A stretch of DNA of 64,000 nt from an uncultured Gammaproteobacteria bacterium (GCA_964430295.1 CAYSEV010000001.1:5699-69698), one strand, 5' to 3'; numbered from the stretch's first letter, positions 2,000 to 60,500 are shown. The notes: generated by a model not told the origin, from the letters alone. Translations and numbers: made by a program.

Positions 2000-2075
2000 G
2001 GTGATGAGATTATAACAAAAAAACCACAAAAAAGCCTACCCTCATAGCAGTGTATGTTCAGGAAGGCTCATTTGG

Positions 2076-2300
2076 TTATCTGTCTGTTGATACACCAGCG
2101 ACTGATGGTGTGCTGGCATTCATTTGCTGGTTTACAAAATTACCAACAATAGCCCCAACGCCAAGCATCAGAGCAAATGCCACGACTAGCATCCATCCAC
2201 GCACCACTACCAGATAGTTCTCATTGGTGCCCGTTGAGGCTCGTGAGACTTTTTTGGAAGCCGCGCGATGATGTACGCGTCGCACTACTTTCTTTTTCAT
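2076..2300 (-). CDS. Doubtful small membrane protein (about 74 aa from the MKKKVVRR start; the ORF is open to 2336).
   Basis: The ORF shows a basic N-terminus (MKKKVVRRVHHRAASKKVSR) followed by one clear hydrophobic helix (WMLVVAFALMLGVGAIVGNFV). There is no convincing RBS and I recognise no homology. It would be co-directional with the tRNA pair. Confidence 0.22.
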   Translation of the reverse strand: MKKKVVRRVHHRAASKKVSRASTGTNENYLVVVRGWMLVVAFALMLGVGAIVGNFVNQQMNASTPSVAGVSTDR

Positions 2301-2453
2301 ACATCCAGTGTGGCATGAAAAAAGCGACCCTGTCAATCCCTAGTTTTCACGAAAATTATAGTATCCACATGTAAAATGCCAAAAATTGAGTGCCTCATTT
2401 GCATGTAACCGTACATAATTTTCTATTGATGCAGATATAGTACACACTGGCCA

Positions 2454-2482
2454 TTGACGGGATGTGTTCGCATATATATATT
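2454..2482 (+). promoter_or_regulatory. Putative sigma70-type promoter for giant gene 1: TTGACG (2454-2459), 17-bp spacer, TATATT (2477-2482).
   Basis: This is a near-consensus -35 with exact 17-bp spacing to an AT-rich -10, about 100 nt upstream of the GTG at 2582. The intergenic region 2337-2581 is AT-rich. Confidence 0.3.
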
Positions 2483-2581
2483 ATTACTATAGAAACACTT
2501 GCAGGGTTTCCGTACATGGGCACGTTTTGATTGTCAAAACAATAAAAACGACGGAATTGGGGCAGATTAAACGTCTGCACT

Positions 2582-26500: not shown

Positions 26501-29500
26501 GATTTGGCTGATCAACGGGTAGATGTAATGGAATTAGTTATTGCAAGCATCACAATGTATCCGACTGATACAGAATATCTAAAAGAAGTTGCGAAGATAT
26601 TTGATGCATTGAAGCCGGGATATGAACATACCTGGAGCGCTTGGACATATAATGATGTGTATAAAGCATTACATGAAGCGATAGATCATCCAAGTTCATC
26701 ACCAACTATACCGAGTGGATTTAAAATTGCGCAGTATCTGGGTCAACAGCAACAGCAATTATTAGCTCAGCTTGGATTGCTTGGTGATGTCAGTATTCTT
26801 CCCGTAGGTGGTAAAACAGTACAAAATGCGTTAGCTGCTGCAACAAACACAACAGAAGCATTTGTTCAGTTAGCAGAGAGAATATTTAATGAACACCAGG
26901 CAAATAGAACATTGTTAACTGCTTTATCTGAATCTATAGCTTCAGTTAACCCTGCATTTAATCTGGTCTGGCGATGGAATGCCCTGATTCGAATACAGGA
27001 GGAAATAGATAGGTTGTTAAAACAGCCTGTACAGCCAACTGGGGCAATTACATATGAAGTCTCTAAACAGCGTATGTCAGCACCACTTGAGAGTGCTTCT
27101 GACTTGAAAGCCGGCGATTATTTCCAAAGAAAAGTAAAGAGCGGTTGGGAATCATTCCAATTAAAGCAAAGCGCAGATGGATCGTACTATACGGTTGAAT
27201 TCAAACCTGATGGGACTATTAAGCGCATAAAGGCTGTCTCTGATCCAACATCATGGGGTTTTGTCAAAGAAAATTATCGACGGTTTGATCCTATACAAAT
27301 AATGACGACGGCAAAGAACATGTTAACTGATTTATATACATATGGTGAAGCATATGATGCGAATAACGCTGAAATAGTCAAAACAGTACTTGAAGAAATT
27401 AAAGAAATGCTTGGAGGAGAGGCTACTCTCGAACCGATGAAGACACAAATCGGCATATTGGAGGCAGTGATAGCCGGCGGACGCCCGACAAAAACGACGA
27501 CTCCGCCTATATTGATAGCTACGGTTGAAGAAGCAACGAAACAATTAAATGAACTCTTCTTAGATGGAGCATCGTATCTTCCTGCTAATGTTGGAAGAGT
27601 CAAAGCCTCTGTTGATTCTATTCGGACTGCGCTTGCAAATACACCAGTCTCACAAACTGTAACAGATCAGTTGTTGGCACTGGATACGGTTATTCAACGA
27701 AATCTGCCTGCGGAAGAAAAACCTGTAATTGATCCAAATTTGCACGCTCGACCACAGACAGAACAAGGTATAACTCAACCTGTTCTGGATCCGGCTAAGC
27801 AGCCACAGGAAGCCCAAATGGCAAAAACGCAGGTATTTACTACTCAAAATACGCAAATTGCAGTCAATGAAGGAAGTCAACAAGGTAATAAACTAATAAA
27901 CTCCTATGGGACACCAGAATTATTCCTCGCAGTAGATCAAAAGGATTTGAACTCATACAATCCATCTCAATACACAGGATTACGAGTCCAATTGAAGTGG
28001 GATACGCCAAAATTAGCAGGAAAATTGGCTAAATTTGGTCGCGCTACCGTTCTGGCAGAAGGTAAAGGACAAAACGGAGATTTTGCTAGCAGATATGCAA
28101 TCGGAAGGTTCTATGAATTATTCTATGGTCTTAATGGTCAAGTGTTTGCTGAGAATGTAACAGATGTACCATCCAGAATTCGTCAAATTATTTCCCAGAT
28201 AGATATCGAACTTGCATATATAAATAAACAACACAATACACAGGCAGAAACGACGTTGTCAGTGGCCTTAGAATTCAATGGAAAACTATTCACTGCCTGG
28301 GTTGGAAATTCTAGTATCTACGTAACACGCAATGGAAGCATACACCTGTTAAGTGCTCCAAATGATATGGTTTTGGGAAGTTCAGTGGAAGGGCGAGACA
28401 CAGAATTTATCCATACAAGCGATACATTAGCTGCGGATTTGAAAACAAAAGCCCAAAGGGCTAGAAACAACGGATATCCACTGGCAGCAATTGTTGAAGA
28501 CTGGGCAAATAGTGTAGATACCGCTGTGAACCTTCAACAAGGTGACCAGATTGCTCTTATGACGTATGGAGTAGATGATTTGAACGTAGCACAAAATGCT
28601 ACCGCAGTAGATCCAATTGCATCATTAATCAACGGATTAACAGGTCAAAAGCCTGCTGAAGCTGTCATTGATAGGGCTATTTCAGAAGCTGCTATTCGAA
28701 ACGTGCAAACGCCTCCAATGACAACAATCATATATACAGTAGGTACTTCGGAAAGTGTACAGCCAGTTGCCGTCAAGTCTCTTACAACACTCAGGCAAGA
28801 GCGGGATGCTGAAGTGGATCAAATAATTCAGAACATAGAAAAAGGAGAGGTTTCCCCAGATGCAGATGCCATAATTTCCGATTTGAAATCACGACTGTCT
28901 GAACGCATTGTTCTTCCTGTTGTACAGCAAAACAGAATACGAGCGGCAGCAGCACGTAAGAAGGCTTCCAATGAACGAGAACAGGCATGGAAAGCAGTAT
29001 TATCAACAGATTTGACGGCAGCTGTGACTGATCTGACACAGGCAGGAATTGAGGATTTCTGGGCAAATGCATATGAAGCACTGGGTACAGCAGGTCGGAT
29101 ATTCCCTGAGGTTGAAGTAGCGCCAGAGGAAAGCGCCCAAAAAACAGCACAACCGGTTACAGTCGTTGAGATACGGGATATTATCCAAAAAACATCGCTC
29201 AAAGAACTGCGCAGACAACGGGATGAAGTACTCATTCCGGCTGCAATCAAGTCACTTGCAAATGGGAAATATACCGCGGGTGTAGGCAACATCATCAAAT
29301 CAATTGAAGAAAAGCTAGGCGGCAAAGTAACGGTCACTCGGGCTCAACGTGCAAAACTAAATGGAGCAGCGGCTCGTGGTGAAGCGATCTGGGCATATGA
29401 GAATTTGCTTACACAAGCGTCTCACTGGAGAGGGGCTCCGACAATAGAGATTGCAAACGCAACTATCCAGCAAATCAGATCTGCCATAAAGCAACTCGAG

Positions 29501-32500
29501 GCCTTTATAGAGCAAATGAAAGCAAGTCCTGTCGAAGAGCAACCTGAAGTGTTAGGAAAAACCGTACCGGATATAACTGAAAAAGCAGCGGTGACATTAC
29601 CAAGTGTTCGTGAAGCCGTAAACGAAGCCATAGTTCAAACACTCATCAAGATAGGTGTTGCTTATATTGAATCAGGTGATCGATCCATTATAGAAACTGA
29701 GCTTAGAGGTCAGTTGCAAAAGCAAAAGGTAGATCTGACTCTTATAGCAAGGCCGGGACAAACAGCAGAAGCTGTGTTAGAAGAACTTGTTACCGCACTG
29801 GTAGAAGATTACGCTCCAGCTGTTAAAGAACATACAGCTGATCTTTCTGCAATAGAGCCTGCCAAAGCAATGAATAAGCTTGAAGTAGCCATTGATGAGG
29901 CTACAAACGCTATACTAGCTCGCGTTTCAGCGGAACAGCAAAAAACTCAAACACACACTATCGGTCCGGTAGAGATTGCCACCAATATCGGTCCGAAAAA
30001 GACGACAGGTTTGAGTGCAGATGCCTATGGAGTTCCAGAGCGATTTGTCAGTATAAAACCGGGATTTGCAACTATATCACAGGCACAAGAGGACGTTCAA
30101 ACAGTTTCACCTGAACGTATACAACAATATGGACGTGCCAATATAGTTACTCATGGTCTGGGACAAGCCGATTCCTACGCGAGCAGATATGTAGTCGGCA
30201 GATTCTATTCACTATTTTATGGAATAGGAGTAGCTGCTCTTCAACCTACGCTTGAGTCTACTGAGCGTGTCATGGCAATTCTTGCACAAATAGATGGTGA
30301 ATTGATTGAACAAAGCGCCAAACAGAATACCAAGCTCACAGCATCAGTGGCGGTAACGGTACAGAACGGGGGATTATTACAAAGTATTTGGGTGGGAAAT
30401 GTTCAATCTCATTTGGTGCGTGAAGGTCGGGTTATTCCACTCACATCCCCATCTTCATATGTACTTGGAGAAGGAAAAGCTCTGCAGCAGGGGGTCATTC
30501 AAACACACAATGATATGCCGACGTTAGCCCCTGAAACATTTGGTCCTGAGAGTGATATCGTGCTTGCAAATGGAGACAAGATAGTACTCTCTTCAGATGA
30601 AGTTATATCTCTATACGGTGGAGCTACTGCTGTTGTATCTGAAGGTCAGTATGCTGTGAGTGTCACAGATGCGAATCCTGCACAAACCACAGTAAATAGC
30701 GCCATTAAAACCGCATGGGAATCAAATAACAGTTCATACGATGCACTGACGACGGTTGTTGAGACAATCACAGTAAGTGGTAAGCGCGTGGCTACCAAAA
30801 AAGAAACCAAGCTTACAGAAGCCCGCAAACATGCTATTACATCCGGAGTAGCTCCATTAGCAGCATTCCAGGCAGAAACGCCAGAAGAATTAGCAGTATT
30901 AGAAACAAAGGCTTCACAAGCTCAAGTTCAAAGAGACGCCCAGCTGGAGGAAACATCGGATAAAGGAAAAGGGCGAAGATCCAGAGCAAAAGCCACTACG
31001 AAGAAACGCATGATTCAGGTACAAACACATGTGGGTGAAGTAGAGCTGCTATCAACTGAACCATTTAGTACGCAGGTTGTAGAAGTTGAAAAAGTGGTAA
31101 ACGATCTTGATCAGAGTATTGCCAGACTTGAATCATCGCCACTGTTAGATATCCCTCAGGAAGACCGTGCAGATGTCGCAACAACACTTATAGCGGCACA
31201 GAAGACTCGTGAAGATCTGACAGAACTGCATAAGAAGATACAGCGACTTATGGAGGCAAAAACGGCCATACAAAAACAATTTGGGCTTACATTGTTTGAG
31301 TGGCAAGAGCTGACGACAATTTCAAGCTTTGGGCAATTGCAGAAATTTGTTGCACAAGTTCAGCAGAGAATAGAGGAAGATGCCAGTATCAGAGAAGCTG
31401 CCGCAAACCGTGCAGCTAAGGAGGAAACACAGCAGGCACAAAAACAGGCGGACATCGATGCATTATCAAAAGAAGGGCAATTAACATTGGATAGTGAATT
31501 AAAGGCAAGACAACTGGAATCAAGAATCGCTATGTTAGAAGCCCTAGAATCTCTTAGAAGAGTGTATGAAATACAAGATTCACAGTACCTGCAGATGGAG
31601 AATGAACAGGCAGATGCCATCAACGCAGAAATAGATGCGGCATGGATTGCACACGAAGCCGAAGCAGCATTAGAGCAGTATTGGTCAGTCACGCTAGATA
31701 TACAGGAAGCATCCGCATTGCCGTCTGCGGAGAGAGTTCAAAAATACACAAATCTGCGTCCAAAGCTTGAAGAGGCAATTGATGTAATCCAATCCATGGA
31801 TCCACGAACATATCCTGAAGATGTGGCATACACACTTCGTGTCATAGCAACACGATCAGACGAACGATTAGCAGATATAGATGCAACGATTGCAGCGGAT
31901 ACACAGGCAAACGCACTCCGTGAAGCCCGCAGGGTTGCTATTGCTGCCGGACTGTTGACGGCAAAAGAAGCATTTGAAGCAAAAACTGTTGCAGAAGTTG
32001 AAACAAAGCAAAAAGCTGCACAAGAGCAAAGACAACAAAATCAGCAATTGGCACAGGAAAAAGCAACCGCAGAAGTCGCCACACGTAAAAAAGCGGCTAT
32101 TACGACAGCCGTAACCAAAATTCAAAAAGCCATCAATGTCCCACTTGTTGAACTTTCGACCCTCAATGTAGAAACAATTCTGACAGCACCGGAACTTGAG
32201 GCATTAGCCGCTATTTCAGCACAGGGAGATGAAACAGTAATAGCCGCTATCACTACACTATCTGAAACACAGGAGAGTGCGAGAACTGCAGTAGAGCAAG
32301 CAAAAGCAGCACTTGAAGTCATAGGACACGTCAATGAAGTCTTTACTCAACAATCCGCTACTTCTATAGATGGGCCTGATACAGGCGTGTTGAGTCTGGC
32401 AGATACAGTTGGACAGGTTATAGAAACCCGATTGCAGCAAACAGAAGATCTATCAAATCAAACGGACGCTATTGTTGAGGATTCATTGCCACCTGTTGCA

Positions 32501-35500
32501 AAAGAGCAGATTGCGGCAGCACGCAAAAAGGTTAAAGCCCGCAAAGATGCAATCACAAGAGTAAAAGGAAAAGTAACAGCTGTACGTGTCGCAGTAAAGA
32601 AAACAAATACACTTATTGCTCAAAAAACACAAACCGATAAAAAACCGGATGCCGAATATCTTTCAGAGCTCAGTGAACTTAATATCTTACTCGTGGAGGT
32701 TTCACAGGATATGAAGGTTGCGGGATTACTCAGTCCAGTCGTGACTCGAGCCGCTGCCTTGGTAAAAGATGAAATAGCGGTAGCAGGCCCCGAGGCACTT
32801 AGCACTATATCTGAATCATTGGAGAAAGCGCAAAAAGCCCTACAGCAGCAACAGGAAGCAATCGCAAAAGCAAAGGAAGCGCGCAAAGATGCAGGATTAC
32901 CTGAAGAGCAGAAATTTATAAAGGGAAATCCAAATGTTATCTCCGACTTGATCAAATCCATAGTTGATACAGCCAGATATTATTTGGGCTTTGATCGTAT
33001 AAAGCCAACGACAGTAGGAGTGCCCACAGGTCTTCCTGATGAAGAATCAAAACAAGTTGAACCTGAAGTAATCATCCCGCGTTGGAGGATACTCTGGTCA
33101 TCCACATTCCAACCAGCACGTGATCTTGAAAACAGAATAGCCCGTATGGAAGATTCATACGCAAAGATTATGACTGATATGGAATCAGAAGGATTTAATA
33201 ATCTCGATTTGTTAACGGTATCTGCTGTTGATGCTGTCCAAATGCGCACATCCATAGACGCGTATAGGACCCGATTACGAGCGTTGGTTGGTACGTTATC
33301 AACTGTACAGAATAGATACACTAGACAAAATGGTAGATACTCACAGTCCGATCGCGAGAGGCTCTCTGGATTCCTATCGGATTTGCAGACACGCATAGAT
33401 GTCTCAAATGAATCATTGGATTTGTTATATACAGGACTAGGGGAAATTGTACAAAGGCGAGACGTATTTATTGATGAATTGCCTCCTGTTGAACGCCCTG
33501 CGTTCTTACTTGTAGAACAAGTTGAAACAGCGCTTAGCGTTTTCCCATCAATCAATGATGGATGGTCAAATAAAAAAGAATTGGCAAAGACATTGGAAGA
33601 ATCATTGGCTGAACGCGAGCGAATGTATCTCGTAATGCGCAATGATTTCTTGTGGAATCCACCATATATTAGTGAACTGGGAGGAGTTAAAGAAGAAGCA
33701 TATCAAAAATATAAGAAACAATTCGATGCACTGTTTGAACAGTGGGATAATCTCAACAAAGCGTACGAAGAAATGCTCAAGGTTATGCCGGATGAAAGAG
33801 TTCTAGGACATGTTGCTGGTGGCAGATTTGTCCCGTCCGAGCAATCTCCGGAATTTGGCGGATCACGACTATCTATAGACTGGTCAGGTGATCACATTGT
33901 CATTGCGTATTCACTGATTGGTATTTCAGATCCGGCAAGCAACTGGACGCTCAACGGTCAACCAATTGCCCTTACACCGGATCATACGATTGATATAGCA
34001 GATGGTGACGTCCTTGCAGTTGCGCATGGCGAGTATTATGGGCAGACATTAGAAATTCATAAGAATGGCGAAATTACATTCGTATCAAAAACAGATCAAA
34101 CATTAGCACAAAGAGCAACCGCAACTTCTGTAAAAGCTGCTGGTGGTCTTATCGGCTGGTCGGTCGTTAGTATTGTCGAGTCAAGTGAGACACAAATGAA
34201 AGCAACTGATGAATTCAATGCATTGCATAAGAAGAATACTCAGTTGCCTCTTCTAAAAATGGAAAAGGTAGAAGGTCAGATAAAAAAGACTGAAAAAGCA
34301 CTAACAGAGCTCAATAGACACCTGTCACTATTGCAAAGTACTGTCATGGATAACGTTTCCGGCAGATCCGCCACACGCCGAAATGAAATTATCGCAGAGC
34401 TTACCCGAAGAAAAGAGATTCTGGAACAGGATCTTTTAGCACTGAAAGCAAAATATGCAGACCAAGGATTCTCGGTAAATATATCTATGCTCAATGAACC
34501 TATACGCATCGAAAGAGGACAGGAAGCGGAATCTCCAATTCCTGGTGTCGTCATTAATGAAGATAAAACTATTCAGTTAACATCATCAGATCAGGTTGAA
34601 AACTTTGTAAATGGTACTCCAAACGCATTTGGATTTATCATTCAGCCAGGCGTTGGTTTGCCGATATTAACCAGAAACAAGCTGACAGGACACCTTCAGG
34701 CTTATTTTGTGCTGAACGAAGATGGCGTGCTCATTGTTCATGAAATTCCGTTGGCACCATGGTATAGAGATACAAACAAAAATATAGATGCTCTTGAAAT
34801 TATTAATCACAGAATTGCAGACATAGAAATGTATGATTTGGAGAATATGTTCGGTACAAGAGCCGTTGGAATATATGCCGAAATCATAAATGGTACCTCT
34901 ATACTTCGTAAAATTCGCGGAGATGATGGCAAAACTCTCATTGCCATTACCGATGCTACTATCCCGACGGTTCGGAACACAATGAAAGAAGAAATAAAGA
35001 ATCAAATAGCAGCGTTCAAAGAACAATTAAAACGTACGCGAAGATCAGATGAGCAATATGATCTGATTCAGAAGAGAATTGATGAACTGCAGGCACTTGA
35101 TAAATCAGATATCCTGAAACCGGATGGGTGGGAAGATATCGCCTTTATCAGCGAAAAATACGAACGCAGTTTAGTACATCGTGTGGCTATAAAAGCGGAA
35201 AACTTCCGTTCAACATATAGAAAATTTCCGTTAGTTCGATGGCTCAATTTCGCTTCAGGTATACCATTCTACGCGTCTACAGTGACAATGGTTACAGGTG
35301 TTTTGGGAACAGTACTTGGTCCTGTAGGATTAGCCATAGGTCCTATTGTAGGTCCTATCTTGTGGGCATCACCGATTCCACTGAATCCATCTGATTTTTT
35401 CTGGTTCGGTGTTGATATATTCGTCAAAACGGTTACTGCGCCGTTTATCCTTCCAGATACGATTGTCGGCATGGCTGCACGAACTCATGGATTCTCTGAT

Positions 35501-38500
35501 TTACCACGATTGCTTGAATGGTTGATATTGCCACGATTCTTAGGTCAGGTTGGATATAGGGTGTCTCCTGAACAGTACACAATCTCATCGGATGTCAGAC
35601 GGGCAGGAAATAATACGGAAGTATGGTATGTGAAGAAAAATATCAAGAAACCGAAGAAGATAACTATGAATGTGTTTGGTAAAGAGGTCCTAATCCATGA
35701 TCCAAACTATGGTTTATATAATATCCAAAAATGGAGAATTCCTATACCATTTATAGATCATAGTTTCCATATACTGGGATCAGGGTATCAATCAAAGTTC
35801 AAGATATTCTTGGGCAAGAGTCAGGAATACATAAACCTCTATGTACGCGTTTGGGAAATGCAAAATAAATTGCGTCAAAAAGTACCGACAGAACGAACCA
35901 AGCTGTTAGGTGGTGTTGCATCAAACGGATACCTTGATGAGGTACAGCAAACCCTTGCACTCCTTGCTACGGAAACTGATCCAGGCCGGATTCGTACACT
36001 GGAGCAATACTCAAGAAAGCTTTTGACAAATATAGACGAGCTCATCATTGAACTCACAAAGCTTCGTGATGATACACAGTCGTTCATCATCCGCGAGCCA
36101 AGGCAGATGAAAGGCCTTGATACGGCAGGAATCTCTGCTACACTCCTGGCTCTTATGGACAATAAGGCACTATTAGTCAGCCAGTTATCTGTTGCGCAAC
36201 TGCGCATACAACATGATGTCATTGATGGGGCGATAAAAGGTGAGGTTAGAAACGCGGCTCCAAGTGTCAGAATCGCATTGGAACGAGCCATTCTCTTGCC
36301 TCAAAAACTGTTAAACAAATTATCACAAGTGTTTGTTAAAGCAGGTCCGCAGGGAGCGGCGTTGGAACCAACAAATTGTACGTCCTGTTACACAGCTCTG
36401 CGAGATATGAATGGGTATGTAACTCGTGCTATCGCAGATAAGTCAGGAAAGAGCAATGTATTATTTGACGATGCAAATGTCGTACTTCAGACAGAAATAG
36501 ATAAACTTACTCGTGAAAGCGGAAATGCGTTAGTCTTAGCTGATGCGGAACTTGCAAAGTCTATGCTTTCTGCCGTTGTCAGTGAGGATCCTAAGGCCGT
36601 ACGCGAATATCTGAATAATATCCATACCCAGAAATTAGCATTATCAAAAATTGCAGATAAAAAGAGATTGTCTAAAGAACAAAAAGCACGATTGGATGAT
36701 ATTATACGCCTACTTAATACACTTGGTGATCGTATAGAAGATCTCGTAGATGTCATAGATACACCGACCATAGGTGTGAAAGCAGATGCAGTGGAAAAAC
36801 ATCAGCAGATATTGGATATCGATGATGACTTTGTCGTAAAAGAGGTAAATCAGATTGTTACCCCGCGCAAGATAACAGTGGCAAGTTTTGTGCGTATGAT
36901 GTCATTCTTCCTTCCATTCCTGGTTGAACCGGCATATGACGATACATATGTTGCAGATGTGCTTTCACAGGTTCATGTTCCGGAATTACAAAAACTTCAC
37001 CCCGAAAGACAGTACCTTAGAGTCCGTACTAGGGATATAAAATACCTGGCAAACGGCACGGAAAACTTTGTCTATAAAGGAACATTCCGTTACCTGGAAA
37101 ATGGTGAGCTTAAGACAGAAGTGAAGATTGTAAAGATAAACCGTAAAGAAGATAGCAGGGAACTGTATGGGTGTTACCTTGCCTATGTTGCGTGTCTTCG
37201 CTCGTATGTATACATGTACTCATCGATAGGAAAGGTTATAGAAGAAAAGTATCCGGACCTGAAGTATTTTGTACCACATCACGATCTGTACCATATAGGC
37301 AACCTGCAAAACTCACTCATCGTCACAGAATTTGTTGAATATAAGAGCATGAGTAAGTATAAGTTTGAAAGTGAAGAAGAACGGGAGCGCTTAAGTAAAG
37401 AAATAAAAGCAGCAACACAAGGACTCATGGAGGATCTGGATAAACGATATGCATTCCAGTTTGATTTCGTGGGAACAGATAATTTAGTCATAGGCAAGGG
37501 AGCTGATGGACTATCTCATGTCATGTTGCTAGACCCTGGTATGTATGATTCACGGCGTGTTGTGTTAAACAAAATCCTAGGGCCGATATCTCGAAGTGCG
37601 ATGCGTGTAATCGATCGATTTAGAGCAAAACAATACATCAGAATCTTTGAACCTAGTGTTTGGAAGACAATGGGATTCAGATTGCAGGCCCTTCGGGTTG
37701 GCGGTTTTTCAAAGGAAGATGAACCGATTGCCCGTAAAGTATACGATGCAGGCTATCGTGGCGCCTCAATGGCTGTATTAACTGATCGAATTCAGAAGAT
37801 ACGTACGTATCTTCCATTGACTGAGAGTATCAGAACTGTGTTGGAAGGGTATAAAACGATCGGATCATACTTATTTGATCGGTATTATTTGCGAATAGAC
37901 AGTACCAATAAAGCAAAAGTATTTTTGCATGTGGCTGACTGGGTAAAAAATAAACTTCCTGATGCACAAATTTATCAGCTTTGGAATGCTGTTGCGGCTC
38001 TTCCTGATGATATGCGCACGTCGGCAGCCAACTATGTAACCATAGCAGTTCGAAGACATGTTCCAACCAGTCAGATATTGGGAACATTAAGGAATCTAAC
38101 CTCTCAGGGAACAGCACAGGCAGGTTGGAAGGGGATAGCCACAGACACGAGCCTTACAACAGTAAATGATCAGGCATATACACAATATCTTTATGCGGCA
38201 GCACTCCCACAACTTCGAACCTGGATTCAGGGAAATACTGATACAGCAGATATTCAATCTGAAATAACACAAATAGTAGGGAATATGGCAAATCTGAATC
38301 CTTCTACTCCAACCCGCGGATCTCCGTTTACGCAGGTACATATTGATGCTGCTATCCGAGCCTTGGTAGCTGATTTCTCCGAAATTCAACGAGATGCGCT
38401 CCAAAATCAGGTTACTCCTCAAACAACACAACCGTCACTGCAGCAGGATCTTATACGAATTATTCAGGAAGTTGTTAAAGATCCTAAAGAATTTATTCGT

Positions 38501-41500
38501 ACATTCATTCAATCAATTAAAGGATCAGATTTTTCCTTCGTAAGACAACTGGAATCCGTCGTAAAGCGTCTGGTTAGTAAGATAACATGTGGTCAGGCAG
38601 GAAGGTTGATAGGTATTATCTATGCAACAGATGCATCCGCTGCCGCTTGTGAGCCATCTTTAGTTTCACAGACAGCTTCATTTGCCCCCTGGACAGTAAT
38701 TTCTCATGTCGTGAAGGTTGGGGCGGCGCTTATTGCAAAACCATTAACATCTCAAGGATTACGTCAGGCTTATAGGGCTATAATGCCTGTTTCTCCCGCA
38801 TTGTCTAAACCTGTGTATACAATTATCAATAAGGTAGAAGATGAAAAATATTATGTGTATGAGATTAAGCTACAGAATTCTTCACATACATTTAATGTTA
38901 GGATTTCTAAATTCCTTTCATTTGACCGAAATACAACACAGTCTACAGGGAATATATTTTTAGACTGGCATACGGCATATATTGAATCAGTTGTTGAGGG
39001 ATATGATCGTGCTCTGACTATAAATCCAAATATATTTGATACGCAGTATCCGCTGGATACAGTAGATTTTGACATACGCGCGATAAATGTGGATGTGTTA
39101 TACGAAAGCAATTTCTCCAATAGAATTTTTGATGGTATAGATGTGCCTGAAAATACAATAGTGCTTCCTGGTAGTGTCGTCCAGAAATTTGGGCAGGATC
39201 CGACTGTTGTGACGCGTACAATCACAGGAAAGTTGCTGTTAAATGCAGCATATTTCGGGTACTCTCACGATGAAGCTCTATGGCTGCGAATAATTTCTAA
39301 AGATCCATCCGCATTACAGGCATACCATGCACAGACGGATGCACAAGGTGTTACGACACATCTTGATGAATACCACAAAATTAAAGATGCACTTATACGT
39401 GCATTGCCATCACAACTAGTTGTTGAGGCAATGAAAATGAATGCAGATGAACTTATTCAGTTTTTCGCACAATTAAATGATGAAGAGTGGATGAATGTAT
39501 TGAAAACATACTTCGAACAAAGGGGGTTATCTCATGATGATCAGCAAAAGGCTGTTCTTTCATCCTTAGCTGCTAATGAAAAGTTCGTATATTATGCATC
39601 GTTCATTAAAGATGTGTTTAAGCATCAGTTCTCAGGAGATTTTATCGCGAGAGCAAGGTCCGAGGCGAATAGTCAACCTGCATTTCAGAGACGAATGCTG
39701 CGAATATTTAATTCGATACAGTTTGAAATGGATCAGACATATATCATTTCATTCTGGAAATATCCAAGGCGCATGTTTACTTTGTTGAGGGATATTTTCT
39801 ATTTTGAGCGCAATTTCATACCCGGTGACGAATTAGATACCCATGATGTTTCATCGTATGAACGCCTTATGAATTTACATTGGATCTCATTGGCACTGGA
39901 AACAAAGTCATTCACACCCGAATTGAGAAATTTAACTATTCAAATGTTCTTCAGTGTCATGCAGAAGGTTCTTGAGGGCAAACGAAATGCTGACAATGGT
40001 CCTATATCCGAGTATACGGATGAAACACACAGATATGTTGTGGAAACTAATATTGTAGCATTTGAAAAAATGTATGAATCTCTTTACCCAAGGGGCGTAT
40101 CCCGAAAAGAGTTAGATGCTTTGGCTAATGCTGTACGAAACATCGTTTTGAAAAAAGGAATATATAGTATTTTTGGAAGTTCCAGTGCATATGAAAGTAG
40201 AGCAGAAGAATGGTATTTACGATGGATCGACACTATTCCGGGTTTGCGGGGCAAATATAAGATAACAAAGTCAGAGGAAGTACTATTATCACGTGCGGTG
40301 CTTTTGATGCAGCATATTCCTGATTTCACAACATTGTCCGCACATGATCGCGAAGTTATTGGAGCGTCGCTGCTGAGGTATTTAGGAATTCCGGATGCGA
40401 GGGCAAAATATTTGTCTTCATTGTTTGTTCTAACGAGAAAAGACACATCAGTGGAGACCGTATTAAATGACTATGCTAACGCTCAGTATGATGGGCTTAT
40501 TAAGAAATATTCAGCAAGATACACTCCGCAGCAGATGCAAAAGAATATTGCATTAGCGAAGCAGGCTGCGGAAGCAAAAATAAAAAATAGGAATGCTAAA
40601 GTAGCGGATCTTTTGAATCTGCCGGACACGGATGAAAATAGAATTCAGGTATTTTTAGATGGCTATGATGTAAATCCTGAAAATGTGCTCTTTTATGACT
40701 CGGAAGTTTATGTTGATACATCGTATAAAAAACAATGGGAAGCTCTCTACCTTACAAGACTATTCTATATTCAGGATGAAGCCTACATGTCTGAAAAGTC
40801 AGGTATTCCAGCTGCTGATCTTCGGCGAGCCTCAGATGAAACACTTCGAATTTTCCGTTCAGAATATGAAGAAGTGTTTAAACGTGCGTATCCGAATGCA
40901 GAGATAATTCCTTCTGTTTTTGAGTCTGCGAACGCACTGTTTAAAACGATAAATATGATTGGTAATCCACTTGTTGTGATTCCTCCAACGAGTGTCATGG
41001 GTCCATCTACATTCGAGGAAATTTCAGTAAACGCGGGATCGGCAAATATTATCGGAAGATCTCATATGATAAATGCCGCTGTTTATTTTAGCTATGGAAA
41101 TTCTGTTTATCCGCTAATAGATTCCTCAGTGCATGAATTATGGCATTTAGCCCGCAGAGTAAACGATCGCGGTACTATGAATAGCATGTATCGGTATCTG
41201 CCGCAGTCTATGTGGCACCAGCTTGAGGAAGGAACTGTAACAAATCTGGAGAGGAAGGCAATGACTATTGCGTATCCGGGAGTTCCAATCATATCAATGG
41301 CAGATTATGCTATGGCTGAACAGTCATACCTGAGCATGCTTCAATCACTCCGACAGGTTCTTCCGACAATGAGTGATACAGAGTTTGATCGTCTAAAAGC
41401 AAAAATGGAGATTGGGGATTACTACGAAGTTGTTACGATGCTTGGCGGCTGGGATGCATTTAATACATTTTTGGAGGCAAATAAGATTGGTAATTTGCCA

Positions 41501-44500
41501 TATTTCGAATACACATTCGGCAGAAATAAATTGACTGATGCAACCGGTATGCAAACAGTTCAGATGGCGCAACGAACATCTTCAAATATTTCAGCATCTA
41601 ACGATACAAATCATTCTGACATGGCAGGAGTTCCAACTCTCACACAAACCGCTGAGTTTGTCGAAGTAAAACAAGCACTTCAGGGAGCACAGCGACAACT
41701 GGAAGGATATCAGGAAAACCTGATGGAAATGGAACGCTCGCTCAACTTTGTAAAGATTGGACGATTTATTGCCTCTGTAATCGGTATTGGAGGGGTACTA
41801 GTTCTTTTAACAGCTTCTGTAATACTAGCCACAACATATCTCATTCCGGGGATAATAATGGCAGCTGTCACTGCTGTCCCGGTGGCAATTTCATTACCGT
41901 TTATTATAGGAGCGTTTAACACATCTATTGTATATCCGCTGGAAGAAAATATAACCGATGTAAAGGTAGAAGTAATCGATCAGCAACAAGTCATCAAAAC
42001 ATTACAGGAAAATCCTCTATTCACAGAGCCTGCACTTCAGGATCTCAAAAAAGAAATGATACAACAGGAAACGGCTCATATGGAAGCGACACATGATGTA
42101 CTTATCGAAACACAAGACACACTTGACTTCTGGAAGCGGGTAAGAACTGTAATTATGGCTATTTTAGCTACAGGAGCGATCTTCGTTGGGGTCATATTAT
42201 TCTTCTTAACGGGGATGCCTGCCGCACTTGCTGCACTATTCATGACGCTGCCTGTCGTAACAATAATGGGTGGAATATTTATGGGTATGCAAATTATACC
42301 GATTGCACCGTTGGCAAATGATGTACGTGATTTACAGAAAACCTATGAATTACAGAAGAATTACATTCAAAAATTACAGGGAAAAACGTCTGAGACTGCC
42401 CCCAAATTAAAAGTCGCCAATGACCCATGTACAGGTGAAGGAGCGTTCCGACTCTTTGGTCGGGTGTTTGCGGCTGGGCCATGTCCGATTATCCCACTAG
42501 GCGCTACGGTTCCTGTTGTGACAACTGGTGGTAAAACAACAGATATAGCTCTCCCAGCTGGTAAATACGTGATTGCACAGACAGAGGAAGAAGCAGCGCA
42601 ATCAACAGCAGAGAAAGCAGAACCAATTATAGGAACCATACACGGCATGCAAACTGGGAATGAATTCATACGTATATTCCCGACTGTTCCATCAACCACA
42701 TATCCTGAACCCTTCATCATCAATTATGCTGGATATGTCAAAGCGCATCCGGTAGAAGAAAATATTCAAGCTACAAAAGAACAAGGAACGCAGATGTTGA
42801 AGTCTGGCCTATCTTATCCATCTTGGAGATTAGATAGCAAATCAGAGAAACGAGTAAAACTGGCAACAGACACACTTCCAAAGGGACAATACTGGTGGTG
42901 GAGGAAAATTGATCCAGTTACATTACAACCAATTGGCGACCGAATACTCATCAAAAACAATCAAGGAGAGATGCCAACCATAAAGCCTGGAGAGACGATA
43001 GCGGTAGGCACATTCAACGCAGACAAGTCTGGTAATCCAACCACATTTATGGCTGCTACCTATGTGTTTGATGGTGATGTGATCCTAGGGATAAAAACAG
43101 GATCCGACGCAATAGGGCCATCATCTACCACAACAAATAATTCACAATCAACACGACAATCTTCAAAACCAAGCACATTTCCAAAAATCTATGCATCGAT
43201 TATTGCATTTATATTTGATCCATTCGGCCGATTGGCCGAAATTCTATCAACGAATGGAAATATAGTGACAGCAGAAGAGTTACGACAATCCGTTTCTTTA
43301 CGGAAGTCAAATACTGATGCCGATGGTAATTTTACGCTTGACTATTTGATTTCGCTTGTTGGAGAAAGCCGTTCAGTACTGAGAAAACTGGTTCAATATA
43401 TGATGAATTTAGATTTTGCATATGAAGATATACGGGATATTGTAGAGGAAATTGTTTCCGGCCAATTTGGAAGTAGAACCGATAAACTTGTAAATTCAAG
43501 ACGCGTAAATATAGCAATCGTCAGCGCTATTATGTACGACAATTCCATATACGGTTCAAAAGTTCCCATGCCGTATACCATGAAAGAAGCGCTAAAAGCA
43601 GCCAATCTATATCTAGAACAGGGAGATGATTCTATTGTAACCAGACTGATTTCAGTAGGTATATTAGAAAACAGAGCACAGCAGATAAAACAAATGCTAG
43701 ATTCCGTTAATAGTGCAGGCTGGGATCAGCAAATATCGAGAATTGGTATAGTTCCAGTTCTCCTTACGCAAGCAGAATTAGTCGCGTATGACATCACAGA
43801 GCGTGCAGCAGGGCAGTTATATGAGGAAGCTCGGCGATGTTCCGGTCTATCGTTACTCCCGACTGTGTATGCTGATGCTGGTACAAATACTTCCTGTTCT
43901 GCTATGGGGAGAATTGTCTCTACAATGCCTCAAATAATCCCAATCATTGAAAGTAGCTGGGAAACATTACCTGGGAGATTTAGAAGAATCTGGTTGAACT
44001 TGTGGAATTTTCCAACTAGTTCTCTCACCATCAATACATCACCGGGAAACGATGATACGGTCTCGATAAGTCAAGAACAAATCTATGCGGCAACGCTGGA
44101 TTATATGGGTCAATTATTCGCACAGAACACCAATGGTAATACTGAAGAAATACTCTCACAAGTAACTACGTATGCAAGGAATCAAGGTTTGAATCAAATC
44201 CAGATTGATAAACTATCGTTAGCAATGGAAGTGATGGGGAAGAATCGTATCAGATCAGAAGAATTGCTTGCTCAATATAAAGATCCAAAAGATTTGTTTT
44301 ATGCAATGTTTGGATTACGACCATGGTTTCCTATTACAGCAGAGAGGGTTGGGGTAAATATTGCCTTTAGATTATATGATATAGATAATGCACGCTTGGT
44401 GGAAAAATTTATCCCACCGATAAAAGATAAAAATCCTCTAAAGAATTCAATTAATTATATATATTGGTTAATCAATAGGCCATTTAGATTCGCATATGGA

Positions 44501-45541: not shown

Positions 45542-48500
45542 ATGGTCGGGATGCTTCAGTATTTATTTGCTTTTGTATCACATATTTTTACTCTTTTCAC
45601 GAAGCGTTTTTCTCATGGACTTCAAAGCAAAAAACACCATTCTATAGTTTTTGGGGGAATGAGTGGGATGGTCGTAGGATTCATTCTTTCGTTCTCGATC
45701 ATATATGGTATTTCACAGGATTGCAGATCTGCCATACATCAACTCGTCTCTTTTAAGCTTATTCCTGTTGTCCATGCTGCGCAAAACTGTCCTGTATTGC
45801 CGCCTGCAGAGGTCGCTGCCGCAAAAGCGAATGCGGTAAAGAAAGAATCACAGCTACGTGGTTTTGCTAAAGTATTGAATCAGCCGTATGCCATCACATT
45901 TTTCCAATACCTCAACCAACTTCTGGGAGGATCCTCAAAAACTGCTAATACTGCCGATAAGACCGCTTCTACACCTCTAGAAAATACTTCGTCCTTAAAT
46001 AACATTAGTGAAGATAAAGTACTTAATGGACAGGCTGCAAAAGAACATATATTGGCGCTCGCCCGGAAATACAAAGGTGTTTTATCAACGCAATTACTTT
46101 CCCATATTGAAACTGCAATTGGCGTCGGAATGCTTCCGAAAGAATATATGTCTTTTAATGATGGAGAAAAAATTCAATTTTTAGCAGGAGGGCAGAGCAG
46201 TGCTCTATTTACACCGGCTGTATTACAAAAACTTGCAGATTACGCACTTGTCGATCCTCGTATTGCTATCGGACAATTTAGTGAGATGGCAGCAGCAACA
46301 TACGCAGAACAACTACCTCAGGAATCAGATATCCGTTTGGCAATCGTCAAGTTGAAAGAAATGGGTGTGAATCAATATTCACTAAAGTTACAACTGTTTT
46401 CTGACGGTCAACCGTTATGGATTGTTAATACCAGTGGACAGAGTTTCGTAATTCGTGCAAAAAAAACAACAATACCAATCGAAGAAGTACGTTCAAGAAT
46501 TGCCTCGTTGGGAGATACCATACCTTTTACCTATGCTGAACAATTAGCTCCGGGTAAGGTCTTGTTATTTATCAGAAATCTTAGCTATGACAATGATGGT
46601 GAATATGTGAAGCTTCCGGAACAGGCATCATTTGTGGAAAAAGTGCTTGAACGATTCCGAGATTTAGGATTTGAACCGGATTTTGTGCATGAGTCATATA
46701 TGAATCTCCAAAACTTCATGTATTCAAAATTCTATGGAAAGATGTTTTACGTTGATCAGGACGTATTTGATGAATTACTCAAGTCTGATGGTATTAAACC
46801 AAATGATAAAGTTACGCGTGCCGTAAACTCGCAACTGGAAGAGCTTTCCAAACGAAGTAGTGTGAAGACGCCCGACACAGCGCCATCTTCAGTGACGCCG
46901 AATCCAAGCTCAGCGCTGAATACGGCTAAGCAACAAGCAGTTGTTTCACGTCTCAAACTGGCACTTGATGGTGCAAACAATGCTCTGGTAAACTCTCAGC
47001 GAAATTTCTGGTTTGCCGCTGTAGGAACTATTGTATTTGCCATCGGTATGATCGCAATTATGGCTACAGTGCCATGGCTTATAGTCCCCGCTGCATTGGC
47101 GCTTCTAGTAACAGTTCCTTCGAGTATGTTTTTGATTCCTAATTTCTATATGTCTATGGATACGAATAGGCAAACACTGCAATCCGCACAAGCTCAATAC
47201 ATAAGTGCACAAAATGATTTACTCATTCTGGAACGTTCTCAGGCATCTGCTACACCGTTAAATATTTCAAGCGAACAAGCTAAAGCCCGAGCACAGGAAA
47301 CACTGGATGCTGCCACAAAAGCAAACAATGTCGCGTTTAATAATCTGGTCTTTGGTTCTGCCGCTACAATCGCTATAGTATTCCTTGCGGTAGCGGTTAT
47401 GATGATATCGCCGGGTCTTTTTGTTCTTCCGTCAGCTATCGCGCTTGTCGGTGTTGTGCTCTTAAGTTCCTTTGGACTTTTTAGACTCTCTTCTAATTTC
47501 AACACTTCACTAAGTACCTTGCGAGGAACTCAACAAGTCGTAAAAACAGGAGTGTCTCAAGTAATATCTAAAGATAATCCATGCAAACCCACTGGTTTTC
47601 ACCTATTCGGTCAAGTATATGCAGAAGGACCATGTATCATTCTGAGTGTAGGCGGAGATCCAGTTGCAACAGCTAAAGAAGGGGAAAAGGGCGAACCAAT
47701 TCCGTCAACACCTGCTCAAATACTTCCAGGATCAACATATGTTGTAGGGACATTTGATGAACTCAAGAATGTAACAGAGGGGAAAGACTCTGTAGGAACA
47801 CAAATCAAAGAGATCCCGTCAGACCAGTATGTAAAGGTATTCCCACCAGTAGGAGCTACGGGTCCAAACAATCAGCCAATTCAACCGTTTGTTGTGGATG
47901 TGCCGACGATTTATGCAACGCAGCAGGCCAATCAACCAATACAGCAACAAAATTCTGGTGCGAAAGTTAACATGTCTGACTCATCACCCAATACCACTAC
48001 GACTATTCGAAATACCATTAATAGAATATTAGATATTCGCTCTTGGTTCCCATCTCCATATTCGATAATCCAAAATAACATTGTTCTACGCATGTTCGCT
48101 CCATTTATTAGTCCAGTTACCACCTCGATTAGCCCTTGGAGTATATTTGGACGGGGAAGATCTGAACCCATACAAGAAATTGCAAATATAGTATCCAGTG
48201 AAGAAGCACAACAATATGTAATCAGCAAATATAATGCCATGATAAGCGCGTTAGAAAGTGGTGCAAAATTATCATCTACTAGGACAACCATGATGAGAGC
48301 AGAGGCTATTGCGGGATTAATAGCAAGCCCTGCTGAAAATATAGATGCGGCTAATCGTCGATACGCGATGGCATTTATTCTCATGAATACGCTTGTTGAT
48401 AGAGAATTAGCACACCCTCGCCAGGTTGAACGGTTTTTCATGGTACGCACATCAAAAGGCATACGGCTTATCTATACAGATGGTAAAAATTTTGTGACGA

Positions 48501-57500: not shown

Positions 57501-60500
57501 AAAGGGACACAAAGCAAACTCCTTTTGTTATAACGTCACTAACTTGGACTTCGGATAAGACCGAGTATAAAAAAACTGACTCAGATTTCAAGATTAAAAC
57601 AATAGGAAAACCAAATGATGCAAAGAAATCAGACATTGTATTGCCTGAAATCGGTCCTATAGGAGAGGGTCATGCAAGCACTCGATACTCTACATCTATG
57701 CGAACGCTTGAAATAAAACCGGAAGAAAAAGCATTTGCTATATGGATAAAGAAAAAAGGTGAACGGCTAGCTATCAAATATACCGCGCCAAATGCATACA
57801 GATCTTTAGCAACAGGTGATGAAGTGACGTTTTCATACGCATCCGCAGAGAGTGCATCAGAAGGTGTTACCTATGTTGTTGCTAAACTCGCTGACGGCAA
57901 TTTTGCATTTGTTTTGAGCTCTAATCACGAAGTGCTATACGGATTACCATTTATAGCACCGGAAAATGAACCTGTCTTTGTTCAGCAAAAAGCGAATCGT
58001 GTGCAGGGGAATACCGGCTGTGGAACGGCATATGATTCGTTTCTCACAGTCTTTGCCGAGGAACCTGCAGAGCCTGTCGTTTGTTATCCTGTCAGAGCAG
58101 GTTCGCTACTTCAGTTAACTAACGGTAAAAATATCCGCATCCCAAAATGGGGGATATATGTGCAAAATGGCTTGCATATCTTTAGTCCTAAGACAGTCAT
58201 GCAAGTGCCTAAAAACGGTTCGATAACAATTATAGGATTATGGGTATGGAGAACGATACAGGGAACAGAGATAACAAATACAACTCGTTCCATAACCGTA
58301 CTTCCCACATCATCTGGTGACATATCTTTACGTGCTTCTGCTTCACCTGGTGATTTTGTGAATAGTACTGCACATGAAGAACATACACGTCGCTATTACA
58401 AACAGGCAGTTATGGAACATGCTGCCCCTGATATTTCATTGGCTGCAGCGAAATCAATATTTTCAAGACTTTATAGAACGAATGCTCCAAATCGTGATGA
58501 AGCAAACAGATTATATATACAGGCATGGATTATTATGCATACACTTGTTGCAAATGGTCATCTTCGTGCAGAGCAAATTCCTACACTATATGCAGTTCGG
58601 GTAAAGGGAGAACTGCGCTATGTATTTTCCTTCGCGCAAACATTTATTACGCATAACCATACAATAACAAATGCGGATGGATTAACAGTACATACAGGAT
58701 CAGCGCCTGCAGAAACGATTTTGACATATATGCAACAAGCGGATCCGACGCTTTCTCAGTCAGATATATCTGAAGTAGTGTGGAATGCCTCTTCATACCC
58801 ATTTATGCCTATTGGTACTGAAATTGAGTCAGAATTATTAGAAAAAGATATTACTGTTGATACTCATGCTATTGCTCAGCTTGTTACTCCGGAAAAAATT
58901 ACTCTACTGCGGCAATTTCCGAATGGTTCAGGGACCGGTTTTGGTGTCAGTCAGATAGTCGCATCCGATCAGTTTGCTCTTTTAACCGCTGGTGTAAATG
59001 CAGAAGAGGTCGAGAGAATGTCCGGTATGATTCGTCAAATCATTACTGAAACTCTTGATTTGATGAGTGGTGATCCACCAATTGTAAAAATCAGAAATAA
59101 GATAGATGCGATTCGTTCAGAAAATTTTGATGAATTAATAAGAAATAACAGTGCATTACAACAGTCAGTATTGGAAAAGTCCAACTCACTCTTTGGTAAA
59201 GGCGTCCAGTATGTGAAAATTTGGCTTAATGCCTTCGGTCTCTATGTGGATTATGATACTGCCTTCAAGGCAATTCGTGAAAAGGTAAATACAGATGTAG
59301 TAGCCTTTGCAAGCTACATGAGTTTATATGAATCGGACAGATCCACATTCTCAGAACTGGATCAATTTGACGCTACTCGATATTTCCTTGATATGTTACA
59401 GGAAAGATACAACGTACAGCTGGCGCACTACAAAGGGGGGCTGTTTTTCAGACCTCTTGCATCTGGACATAAAAAAGATCCCGGAGGTCCACTAGATTAC
59501 GTTATCGATGCTGCTTTTGCGCAAAGTGCAAACCAGAATATTACATTCCTTAATCCGATTATCAAACAGTGGAAAGAACGCCATGTGTACGTTCTACAGC
59601 CATGGTATCTGAATTACCTACAGCCTGACATGAAGTATACGTCGTATACAGACCTTGGTATCACAGAAGAAGATATTCCGCTGGTAAACCTCTCAAGCCG
59701 CCCACAGGAAGATCAGCATATGTTGGCTAATCTCACAGGATTATTTCAGAAATATCTGAGAGCACCACTGGTAACGGATACGTTTACAGATCATGTCTCA
59801 CAGAGAAGACCATGGCTTTCAGCATTGAGATCAAGGATTACTCAGGAAAGAACCCAAAGTGATGCCACTGATTTTATCCGATGGATATCTACAAATAAGC
59901 TTTCCGGTGGGGAGATATCTCAAATGACAAGTCATGTCCTTACACTTCAGGCATTGGGAATATTTTCATTTTCTTCCGAACTTCTTGAGCAAGCAAACAC
60001 GTTACAATCATATTTCCTTAACAATAGTGAACGGTATGATTCACTTACAAATGAGGAAAAACTTACTGTTGTGCAGGATGCAATTTCATTTGCTAAGAAT
60101 GGTCTTAAAGAATTAGCATCCGCATCAGTTCTTGAATCTACTAATTTACCAAAAGAAGAACCTTCTGAAGTGCACTCAAAAGAATTAAAACAGGAAGAAA
60201 AAAAAGTATCAACCGAGAATTCCGGATGTGATATAACCATTTCCTTATTTCATCAAGTGTTTGCTCAGGAGCCTGCAGTACTTGTTAATTGTTATCCCAT
60301 TGGAGCAGGTTCGCTACTTCAGTTAACTAATGGGGACACCATACGTATACCAACGTGGGGAATATACGTTCAGAACCGCAAATTACATTTTTTTGGTCCT
60401 GATACGATACTGGAGGTTTCTCAGAATGGCAATATCACAATACTTGGACCGTGGTTGTTTCGCACAATACACGGAGGAGACATTTCACTTGAGGGAAAAC

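Follow-up and report, generated by a model that had tools for sequence, protein, structure and literature searches.

The window analysed here is a 64,000-nucleotide stretch, given as one strand, from an uncultured Gammaproteobacteria bacterium (GCA_964430295.1, CAYSEV010000001.1:5699-69698). The locus is bacterial chromosome and consists of two giant open reading frames (ORFs) on the same strand, which we call gene 1 and gene 2:

2582..45307, + strand: gene 1, 14,241 codons, with an N-terminal membrane anchor and PT- and Cys-rich repeats
45542..63478, + strand: gene 2, 5,978 codons from ATG 45542, with an N-terminal anchor

Counted from its first TTG, gene 2 extends over 45494..63478 and 5,994 amino acids (aa). 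An original prediction for this locus had regarded gene 2 as a partial duplicate of gene 1, arisen by duplication or fission, with the pair evolving by module shuffling. Our comparisons favour the shuffling. The two adjacent giant genes, each with its own start, share three orphan modules that were copied in the distant past and rearranged: a membrane cassette with two transmembrane (TM) hairpins, a cysteine-bearing domain (Cys domain), and a domain of ~300 aa with a HExxH motif (HExxH-A). They lie in the window as follows:

40607..41524, + strand: HExxH-A domain of gene 1, aa 12676-12981, HELWH at aa 12851, adjoining the cassette upstream
41525..42388, + strand: cassette of gene 1, aa 12982-13269, with pre-TM helix, hairpin 1, spacer and hairpin 2
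41762-41917, + strand: hairpin 1 of gene 1, aa 13061-13112
41918-42145, + strand: polar helical spacer with a Pro break between the hairpins of gene 1
42146-42301, + strand: hairpin 2 of gene 1, aa 13189-13240
42389..42802, + strand: Cys domain of gene 1, aa 13270-13407, opening with the loop C13283-C13301, predicted to be rich in beta-strands
46805..47545, + strand: cassette of gene 2, aa 438-684, with hairpin 1, spacer and hairpin 2
47009-47128, + strand: hairpin 1 of gene 2, aa 506-545
47129-47341, + strand: spacer between the hairpins of gene 2
47342-47479, + strand: hairpin 2 of gene 2, aa 617-662
47546..47935, + strand: Cys domain of gene 2, copy 1, aa 685-814, with the loop C697-C714
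51866..52273, + strand: Cys domain of gene 2, copy 2, aa 2125-2260, with the loop C2140-C2159 and no TM hairpins before it
54698..55585, + strand: HExxH-A domain of gene 2, aa 3069-3364, HEMNH at aa 3255

The hairpins were located by a hydropathy scan, which, together with nucleotide conversion, reproduced the positions originally given for the hairpins and the Cys module in both genes. The hydrophobic stretches of the cassettes are 40-52 aa long, uncharged and interrupted by a central Pro-containing turn, and the polar helical spacer between them takes up 64-73 of the ~390 residues of cassette and Cys domain together. At 30-40 aa past the second hairpin stands a Cys-bracketed motif, CTGEGAFRLFGRVFAAGPC in gene 1 (13283) and CKPTGFHLFGQVYAEGPC in gene 2 (697). 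The GTF and VFP sequences, listed earlier as motifs of their own, turned out to be positions inside the single Cys domain of ~130 aa; copy 2 in gene 2 reads DPCTPTISVQIFGRVYAAGENC ... YLVVFP ... AFIIRIP. The segment between the hairpins had been described as a coiled coil of about 60 aa. In a crude heptad scan, periodicity was limited to the gene 1 spacer, and there to its first half (P ~0.01), with none in the gene 2 spacer (P=0.66), and prolines stand mid-spacer in both copies, so that a helix-break-helix is the more likely arrangement judging from the sequences. Nor does the block form the C-terminal end of gene 1, as had been assumed, since ~840 aa of the protein lie beyond it.

BLASTP of gene 2 against gene 1 had been proposed as a check, and, run over the whole proteins with SEG masking, it gave similarity above chance in three high-scoring segment pairs (HSPs). 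The first joins gene 2 438-802 to gene 1 12982-13381 with 22.8% identity (E=2e-7), another covers HExxH-A (gene 2 3221-3360 and gene 1 12829-12965, E=2e-6), and one connects the second Cys domain of gene 2 to that of gene 1 (gene 2 2088-2236 and gene 1 13225-13368, E=1.7e-4). When BLASTP with compositional adjustment was confined to the sub-region, gene 2 438-824 matched gene 1 12982-13400 with 22% identity over ~440 columns (E=3e-11). Because TM hairpins can inflate alignment scores, we applied a local-window control in which one sequence was shuffled inside windows of 10 or 20 aa, thereby keeping the local and TM composition. The whole cassette with its Cys domain stood above these shuffles (z=8.7-10.8), as expected of homologous modules, and the similarity was thus not lost to masking or TM composition as had been feared. 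The part after the second hairpin reached z ~10, and the pre-TM helix before hairpin 1 weakly exceeded the shuffles (z=3.4-4.8). The three Cys domain copies scored z ~10 in all three pairings, with copy 2 of gene 2 at z ~10-11 against each other copy; a profile built from the two cassettes only, with copy 2 held out, recovered that copy at 23 bits. HExxH-A gave z=14-15. The motif is conserved between its two copies, in which SVHELWH (gene 1) and SVHEMNH (gene 2) align, and the invariant positions are SVHE..H, a Glu 28 residues past the second His, and GGWDAF.

The signal therefore resides in the Cys domain and the pre-TM helix, and the evidence for homology is located in the flanks of the TM-spacer-TM part. 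This part showed no residue similarity beyond composition (z=0.4-1.2), and neither did the spacer alone (z=0.8). Of the common architecture claimed originally, the order of TM pair, spacer, TM pair and Cys domain was upheld and a sequence signal through the TM-spacer-TM part was not: the match there is architectural only, and homology rests on position, spacing and the flanking similarity. One could attribute the resemblance to composition, with hairpins, a polar helix and short motifs recurring by chance or convergence, as the scores of the TM-spacer-TM part and the presence of other TM clusters in gene 1 would allow. We find this scarcely credible. The Cys domain and HExxH-A survive local shuffles, SEG masking and composition-based statistics, and for these two modules the alignments largely refute an artefact. 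The hairpins and spacers of both cassettes agree in order, in length and in a few aligned residues, including the proline in the turn of hairpin 1, the mid-spacer proline and Q.TLD before TM3, and the pre-TM helix keeps the pattern K.AL.GA...L...Q.N in both. Moreover, the only internal TM hairpins of gene 2 are those directly upstream of a Cys domain, with order and spacing like those in gene 1. The first and second halves of the cassette also weakly suggest an internal symmetry (z=2.3-2.9). A direct-repeat scan of the window from 40000 to 64000 found no DNA-level similarity between the two cassettes, which argues that their duplication is old. Judged by these alignments, the shared modules are established as paralogous, old and rearranged.

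The HExxH sequences required a separate assessment, since both a type A and a type B had been said to occur in both genes. Type A is indeed shared, as described above. The proposed type-B pair consists of the following motifs:

44612-44626, + strand: THELQH of gene 1, aa 14011
49370-49384, + strand: AHEAGH of gene 2, aa 1293

This pair was not distinguishable as homologous, with a gapped z=2.2 in which the motifs did not align and a motif-anchored z=1.0, and neither motif showed a detectable relation to HExxH-A. Both proteins together contain four HExxH motifs, and only 0.18 would be expected from composition, so the two extra motifs may still be catalytic sites of unrecognised domains. HExxH-A resembles zincin/gluzincin metallopeptidases in the conserved HExxH and downstream Glu of both copies, and a low-confidence model of it places a strand-rich block before the motif helix. 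In contrast to these enzymes, HExxH-A matched no family model in Pfam or NCBIfam and no solved structure among the PDB sequences, and it is at most a candidate member of a peptidase family.

Whether gene 2 could be a copy of gene 1 can be judged from the extent and arrangement of the shared modules. Only ~820 of the 5,994 residues of gene 2 (14%) have a counterpart in gene 1, where they correspond to ~730 aa (5%); the remaining 86% returned nothing against gene 1 in BLASTP up to E=1, in unfiltered phmmer runs or in profile searches. Paralogous genes would be expected to be similar over most of the shorter gene and to keep their shared modules collinear, and neither is seen here. Gene 1 has the order HExxH-A, cassette, Cys domain, and gene 2 the order cassette, Cys domain, second Cys domain, HExxH-A, so that the HExxH-A domain placed directly upstream of the cassette in gene 1 is found ~2,250 aa downstream of it in gene 2. 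With 86% of gene 2 unrelated to gene 1 at a detectable level, the alignments do not support gene 2 as a copy or partial duplicate of gene 1.

The DNA between the two genes bears on the same question:

45308..45541, + strand: intergenic spacer, 234 bp, 24% GC, with stops in all frames

The stop codon of gene 1 is the TAA at 45305-45307. The start of gene 2 is most likely ATG 45542, which has GAGG 8 nt upstream and is exactly where the database entry P0001 begins, rather than TTG 45494, which is without a ribosome-binding site. With this start the spacer measures 234 bp instead of the 186 bp first reported, and its description as AT-rich and non-coding holds. The two genes share a reading frame, four in-frame stops lie between them, and the other frames are closed too; no degraded continuation links the genes, in agreement with the original prediction. 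Neither a terminator-like hairpin nor an Rfam match was found in 45308-45541, and promoter-like sites did not exceed their frequency in shuffled sequence. This stretch is genuinely intergenic.

Gene 2 could conceivably still derive from a partial duplication of the 3' part of gene 1, or the two genes could be halves left by the fission of one ancestral giant gene, most of the similarity having been erased since. They are neighbours with a common strand and reading frame, and in each of them cassette and Cys domain follow collinearly. The short Cys-bracketed loops described below are found all along gene 2 and, in gene 1, nowhere but in the last 2,240 aa, so that both stretches look like one kind of protein. 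Sequence similarity at this locus also decays fast, as the closest relative that we found illustrates. This relative (ENA ERZ27247837; GCA_964349125.1) was reached via the cluster of the M23 peptidase and has the same order of rho, M23 peptidase and tRNA-Ala, followed by a giant gene of 11,585 aa; the compared contigs were L001 (8726-17802) and L002 (11219-17716), equivalent to 2024-5157 of the window. The M23 gene of the relative is 74.5% identical at the DNA level, and the tRNA-Ala pair is inverted with respect to the window. When the first 3,025 aa of its giant gene were compared, only two short patches of gene 1, aa 1-84 (67%) and aa 704-1010 (51%), were conserved, and no Cys loops were present in this part. 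On this comparison, the locus evolves very fast. Nevertheless, we consider duplication or fission of the whole gene unlikely. Besides the unmatched 86% of gene 2, the order of HExxH-A and cassette is reversed between the genes, the type-B pair is not homologous, and the spacer has its four in-frame stops and low GC content, followed by a gene with its own Shine-Dalgarno sequence, ATG and N-terminal membrane anchor. The syntenic gene of the relative is shorter than gene 1 alone and gives no support to a fused ancestor of ~20,000 aa, though one may still have existed.

Segmental duplication of modules, as the original prediction had suspected under the name of module shuffling, accounts better for the locus. 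Apart from the significantly similar cassette, Cys domain and HExxH-A and the third Cys domain, a chunked all-against-all BLASTP disclosed further internal duplications within each gene:

13862-15175 and 22430-23731, + strand: gene 1 aa 3761-4198 and 6617-7050, 25.6% identity, E=1e-17
gene 1 aa 8411-8741 and 9117-9415, + strand: PP2C-like, E=7e-22
48317-48655 and 58469-58807, + strand: gene 2 aa 942-1054 and 4326-4438, E=2e-15
57959-58276 and 60149-60487, + strand: gene 2 aa 4156-4261 and 4886-4998, 51% identity, E=9e-31

The first of these modules comprises a hydrophobic hairpin, an Ala/Thr-rich linker and several further hydrophobic segments and is unrelated to the cassette. The last pair is the youngest of the locus, with 76% nucleotide identity over 120 nt, and was the only one visible in DNA in the direct-repeat scan. 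The locus evolved by segmental duplication of modules, as these internal repeats also show, and the cassette pair is one more such ancient duplication, which straddles a gene boundary.

The loop that opens the Cys domain recurs elsewhere in the two proteins. Cysteine is scarce in these proteins (0.30% in gene 2), and all 18 cysteines of gene 2 fall into nine pairs with 16-34 residues between partners. Each of the 18 had its partner within 36 aa, whereas 2,000 residue shuffles of gene 2 paired 3.2 cysteines on average and at most 10. The last three Cys pairs of gene 1 (aa 12003/12023, 13283/13301 and 13753/13772) are alike, which brings the short Cys-bracketed loops across both genes to 12:

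38588-38650, + strand: gene 1 aa 12003-12023, CGQAGRLIGIIYATDASAAAC
42428-42484, + strand: gene 1 C13283-C13301, CTGEGAFRLFGRVFAAGPC, opening the Cys domain
43838-43897, + strand: gene 1 aa 13753-13772, V[YF]A loop, CSGLSLLPTVYADAGTNTSC
45722-45790, + strand: gene 2 aa 77-99, variant VHA, directly after the N-terminal membrane anchor
47582-47635, + strand: gene 2 C697-C714, CKPTGFHLFGQVYAEGPC, in Cys domain copy 1
51911-51970, + strand: gene 2 C2140-C2159, DPCTPTISVQIFGRVYAAGENC, in Cys domain copy 2
54269-54325, + strand: gene 2 aa 2926-2944, V[YF]A loop
56090-56161, + strand: gene 2 aa 3533-3556, V[YF]A loop
58019-58084, + strand: gene 2 aa 4176-4197, V[YF]A loop, opening the domain duplicated at aa 4886-4998
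60227-60292, + strand: gene 2 aa 4912-4933, V[YF]A loop
62279-62350, + strand: gene 2 aa 5596-5619, VYA loop
62501-62608, + strand: gene 2 aa 5670-5705, variant EYA

In nine of these loops V[YF]A follows the first Cys at a fixed distance (C-x8-12-V[YF]A-x3-13-C), and the other three have IYA, VHA or EYA. With the motif derived from the three homologous Cys domains, the nine remaining loops served as the test set, and six of them had V[YF]A against an expectation of 0.13 (Poisson P=5e-9). Three loops are followed by the beta-rich domain, two by another duplicated domain, and the rest by unrelated sequence. A comparison of the Cys domain with the 4176/4912 domain by hhalign matched the loop only and was not significant (E=0.057). 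Because the sequence after the loops differs and the comparison of domain families aligns nothing else, the V[YF]A loop is, on these alignments, a short recurrent element in its own right. It is spaced every 600-1,400 aa in gene 2, and among the families searched it matched none.

Gene 1 has other cysteines upstream of these loops. After the anchor, aa ~70-700 (window 2790-4700) form a Pro/Thr-rich linker and repeated Cys-rich units such as GASCVVGLFGWGDTCSQCSSGHH. Within aa 1000-2000 there are eight short Cys pairs (C-x2-15-C) that lack V[YF]A, and aa 2000-11200 contain nearly no cysteine. The lone cysteines at 5152 and 5780 were considered as marks of NlpC/P60-like domains and were dismissed for want of Pfam support.

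The features of the cassette suggest how it might sit in the membrane. Uncharged stretches of 40-52 aa with a central Pro turn fit two membrane passes each, so that the cassette would be a four-pass internal tether. An even number of passes would return the chain to the side from which it started, pinning the polypeptide to the membrane of the producer itself, and the like Cys-x16-22-Cys loops on both flanks of the cassette (12003 and 13283 in gene 1, 77 and 697 in gene 2) are consistent with it. Strictly paired, even-numbered cysteines are a recognised mark of exported, disulfide-bonded proteins, and the even-numbered, short-range paired cysteines of gene 2 conform to it. With all 18 cysteines of gene 2 paired and loops on the flanks, the flanks are most likely extracytoplasmic and disulfide-stapled. 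The first Cys loop of gene 2 directly follows the N-terminal anchor, which is preceded by a loop rich in K, R and H, and hence gene 2 beyond aa 75 could be read as extracytoplasmic, together with the last part of gene 1. The cassette would then keep segments of zincin-like (HExxH) and lipase-like character on the cell surface, the Cys domain lying next to the membrane, and the 12 loops would be disulfide-stapled hairpins punctuating the exported part, made up of gene 2 in full and the final 2,240 aa of gene 1.

Several observations weigh against this arrangement of shared, exported modules. The most serious is that K/R residues immediately precede TM1 and TM3; under the positive-inside rule they would assign the flanks to the cytoplasm, contrary to the disulfide argument. 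Gene 1 also carries FHA and PP2C-like domains of a cytoplasmic type, and with exported-looking ends its chain would have to cross the membrane several times. The predicted folds offer no backing, because AlphaFold2 on the alignments reached a pLDDT of only 41 for the Cys domain, named 'beta-rich', and 36 for HExxH-A, named 'zincin'. The absence of residue similarity in the TM-spacer-TM part counts here as well, and no homologue was found that could show conservation of the cysteines or hairpins.

A different role for the same features is suggested by AB toxins. Diphtheria toxin, Pseudomonas exotoxin A, Shiga toxin and botulinum neurotoxin have disulfide-bracketed activation loops, in which two cysteines ~14-27 residues apart enclose an exposed loop between functionally distinct parts. 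By analogy, the hairpins might insert in the membrane of a target cell instead of anchoring the protein in its own, and the V[YF]A loops might be nicking sites, leaving enzyme-bearing fragments joined by disulfides. The loops recall those of AB toxins in size (16-22 residues between the cysteines) and in their position between functionally different segments every 600-1,400 aa, with HExxH and lipase-like segments between them, and it has been proposed that giant proteins are processed into smaller polypeptides and that they act on other cells (10.1101/2023.11.21.568195). We regard a toxin of this kind as a poor prospect. The loops have no furin-type, basic or otherwise recognisable protease site and present a hydrophobic strand, a turn and V[YF]A instead; the locus has twelve of them, in contrast to one in a toxin. 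Searches with family models and PDB sequences detected no toxin, translocation or peptidase family, and the N-terminal membrane anchors on both genes fit stable residence in the producer's own membrane. Returning to the membrane-tethered arrangement, we would also entertain, as a long shot, that the Cys-x8-12-[VI][YF]A-x3-13-Cys loops are an undescribed junction element in an orphan class of giant surface proteins, serving as disulfide-stapled processing sites, with the fragments remaining covalently linked and held on the membrane by the four-pass cassette. With similarly slender chances, ~8,200 residues of the two products would be divided into fragments of ~300-1,400 residues (one of ~50), several of them with enzyme-like domains.

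Relatives of the shared modules were sought widely. A word-indexed protein search with the gene 1 cassette and gene 2 aa 17-2016 returned nothing, not even gene 2 itself, so very long proteins are seemingly not indexed there. HMMER with the cassette profile against 1.84 billion representative proteins returned only gene 2; since gene 1 was not returned either, the library may lack proteins of such lengths, and relatives in ORFs >10,000 aa are possible. Scans of genome, metagenome and viral contigs with the alignments of the cassette, the Cys domain and HExxH-A gave no confirmed locus, and searches of Pfam, NCBIfam and PDB sequences gave nothing for the shared modules. Across the 20,235 residues of both proteins the family searches yielded very few matches (FHA, PP2C-like and lipase-like), those in gene 1 being FHA and weak PP2C-like ones:

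15527-15721, + strand: FHA domain, gene 1 aa 4316-4380, Pfam E=1e-11
27812-28804 and 29930-30826, + strand: two paralogous PP2C-like segments of gene 1, weak (NCBIfam E=4.5e-6, Pfam E=0.002)
51020-51406, + strand: lipase/esterase-like alpha/beta-hydrolase, gene 2 aa 1843-1971, Pfam LIDHydrolase E=1.7e-6

The weak PP2C-like matches lie at aa ~8490-8690 of gene 1. The lipase-like segment, positioned between the cassette and the second Cys domain of gene 2, also matched Lipase_3 as a sub-fragment (Pfam E=1.2e-4). PDB sequence searches with gene 1 aa 10001-14241 and gene 2 aa 17-5016 had no match. SecA_DEAD was not found in gene 1 by Pfam, even at E up to 1 on aa 2801-3700, nor were dockerin or glycoside-hydrolase domains detected in the Pfam searches of both genes. 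The hydropathy scan counted at least six TM clusters in gene 1. Upstream of gene 1 are the 3' end of rho, a LysM-M23 peptidase gene and two tRNA-Ala genes, and downstream of gene 2 a YfhO-like C-terminal fragment is encoded on the opposite strand (window 63479-64000, - strand). The YfhO-like gene of relatives (L005-L010) consists of short ORFs of 138-282 aa matching the C-terminal end of YfhO only, and several groundwater/JGI contigs show it in convergent orientation to large Cys- or Pro-rich ORFs, which have no relation to gene 2.

Published accounts place the locus among very long bacterial proteins, which are reported to be rich in TM segments and poor in recognisable domains, with roles suggested at the surface, most of the large/giant multi-TM proteins carrying a divergent SecA_DEAD domain (10.1101/2023.11.21.568195). 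In Omnitrophota, a 2026 preprint describes repeated domains as the rule, with 65% of the Pfam-positive long proteins repeating a domain, and traces the repeats to ancient duplications that have dissolved at the nucleotide level (10.64898/2026.06.07.730766). Gene 1 is like the large/giant multi-TM proteins in being an ORF >10,000 aa with an N-terminal anchor and many internal TM segments, and gene 2, with ~6,000 aa, falls under the 10,000-aa cut-off. The two proteins are similarly unannotatable for the most part, with scattered enzyme-like domains including Ser/Thr-phosphatase-like ones, and their repeated modules are likewise old at the DNA level. They differ in that no SecA_DEAD, dockerin or glycoside-hydrolase domain was detected at the present locus and that the shared modules have no sequence relative in the databases searched. 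The intragenic repeats of the preprint have a parallel in our paralogous modules with 22-51% identity, of which all save the youngest pair have lost nucleotide similarity; here, however, one repeat family spans two genes, and its units are orphans rather than Pfam domains. The available passages of the two sources do not mention V[YF]A Cys loops. The duplication is a further instance of a pattern known for very long proteins and its novelty is modest; particular to this case are a repeat family that crosses a gene boundary and repeated units that are orphans, and somewhat more novel are the 12-fold Cys loop and the cassette as an orphan module.

Most giant bacterial genes resist interpretation, with few clues to their construction or to the placement of their parts relative to the membrane. 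The present locus is a clear example of the copying of orphan modules, both inside a giant gene and between neighbouring ones, in which a membrane-insertion cassette travels with a juxtamembrane domain, and it supports growth by duplication of modules rather than of whole genes. The 12-fold V[YF]A loop supplies a simple sequence marker for portions that are probably exported and disulfide-bonded, as well as a parity check on topology. If the loops were processing sites, they would show how a cell handles a surface protein of 6,000-14,000 residues, and the locus would be a bacterial 'polyprotein on a disulfide string'.

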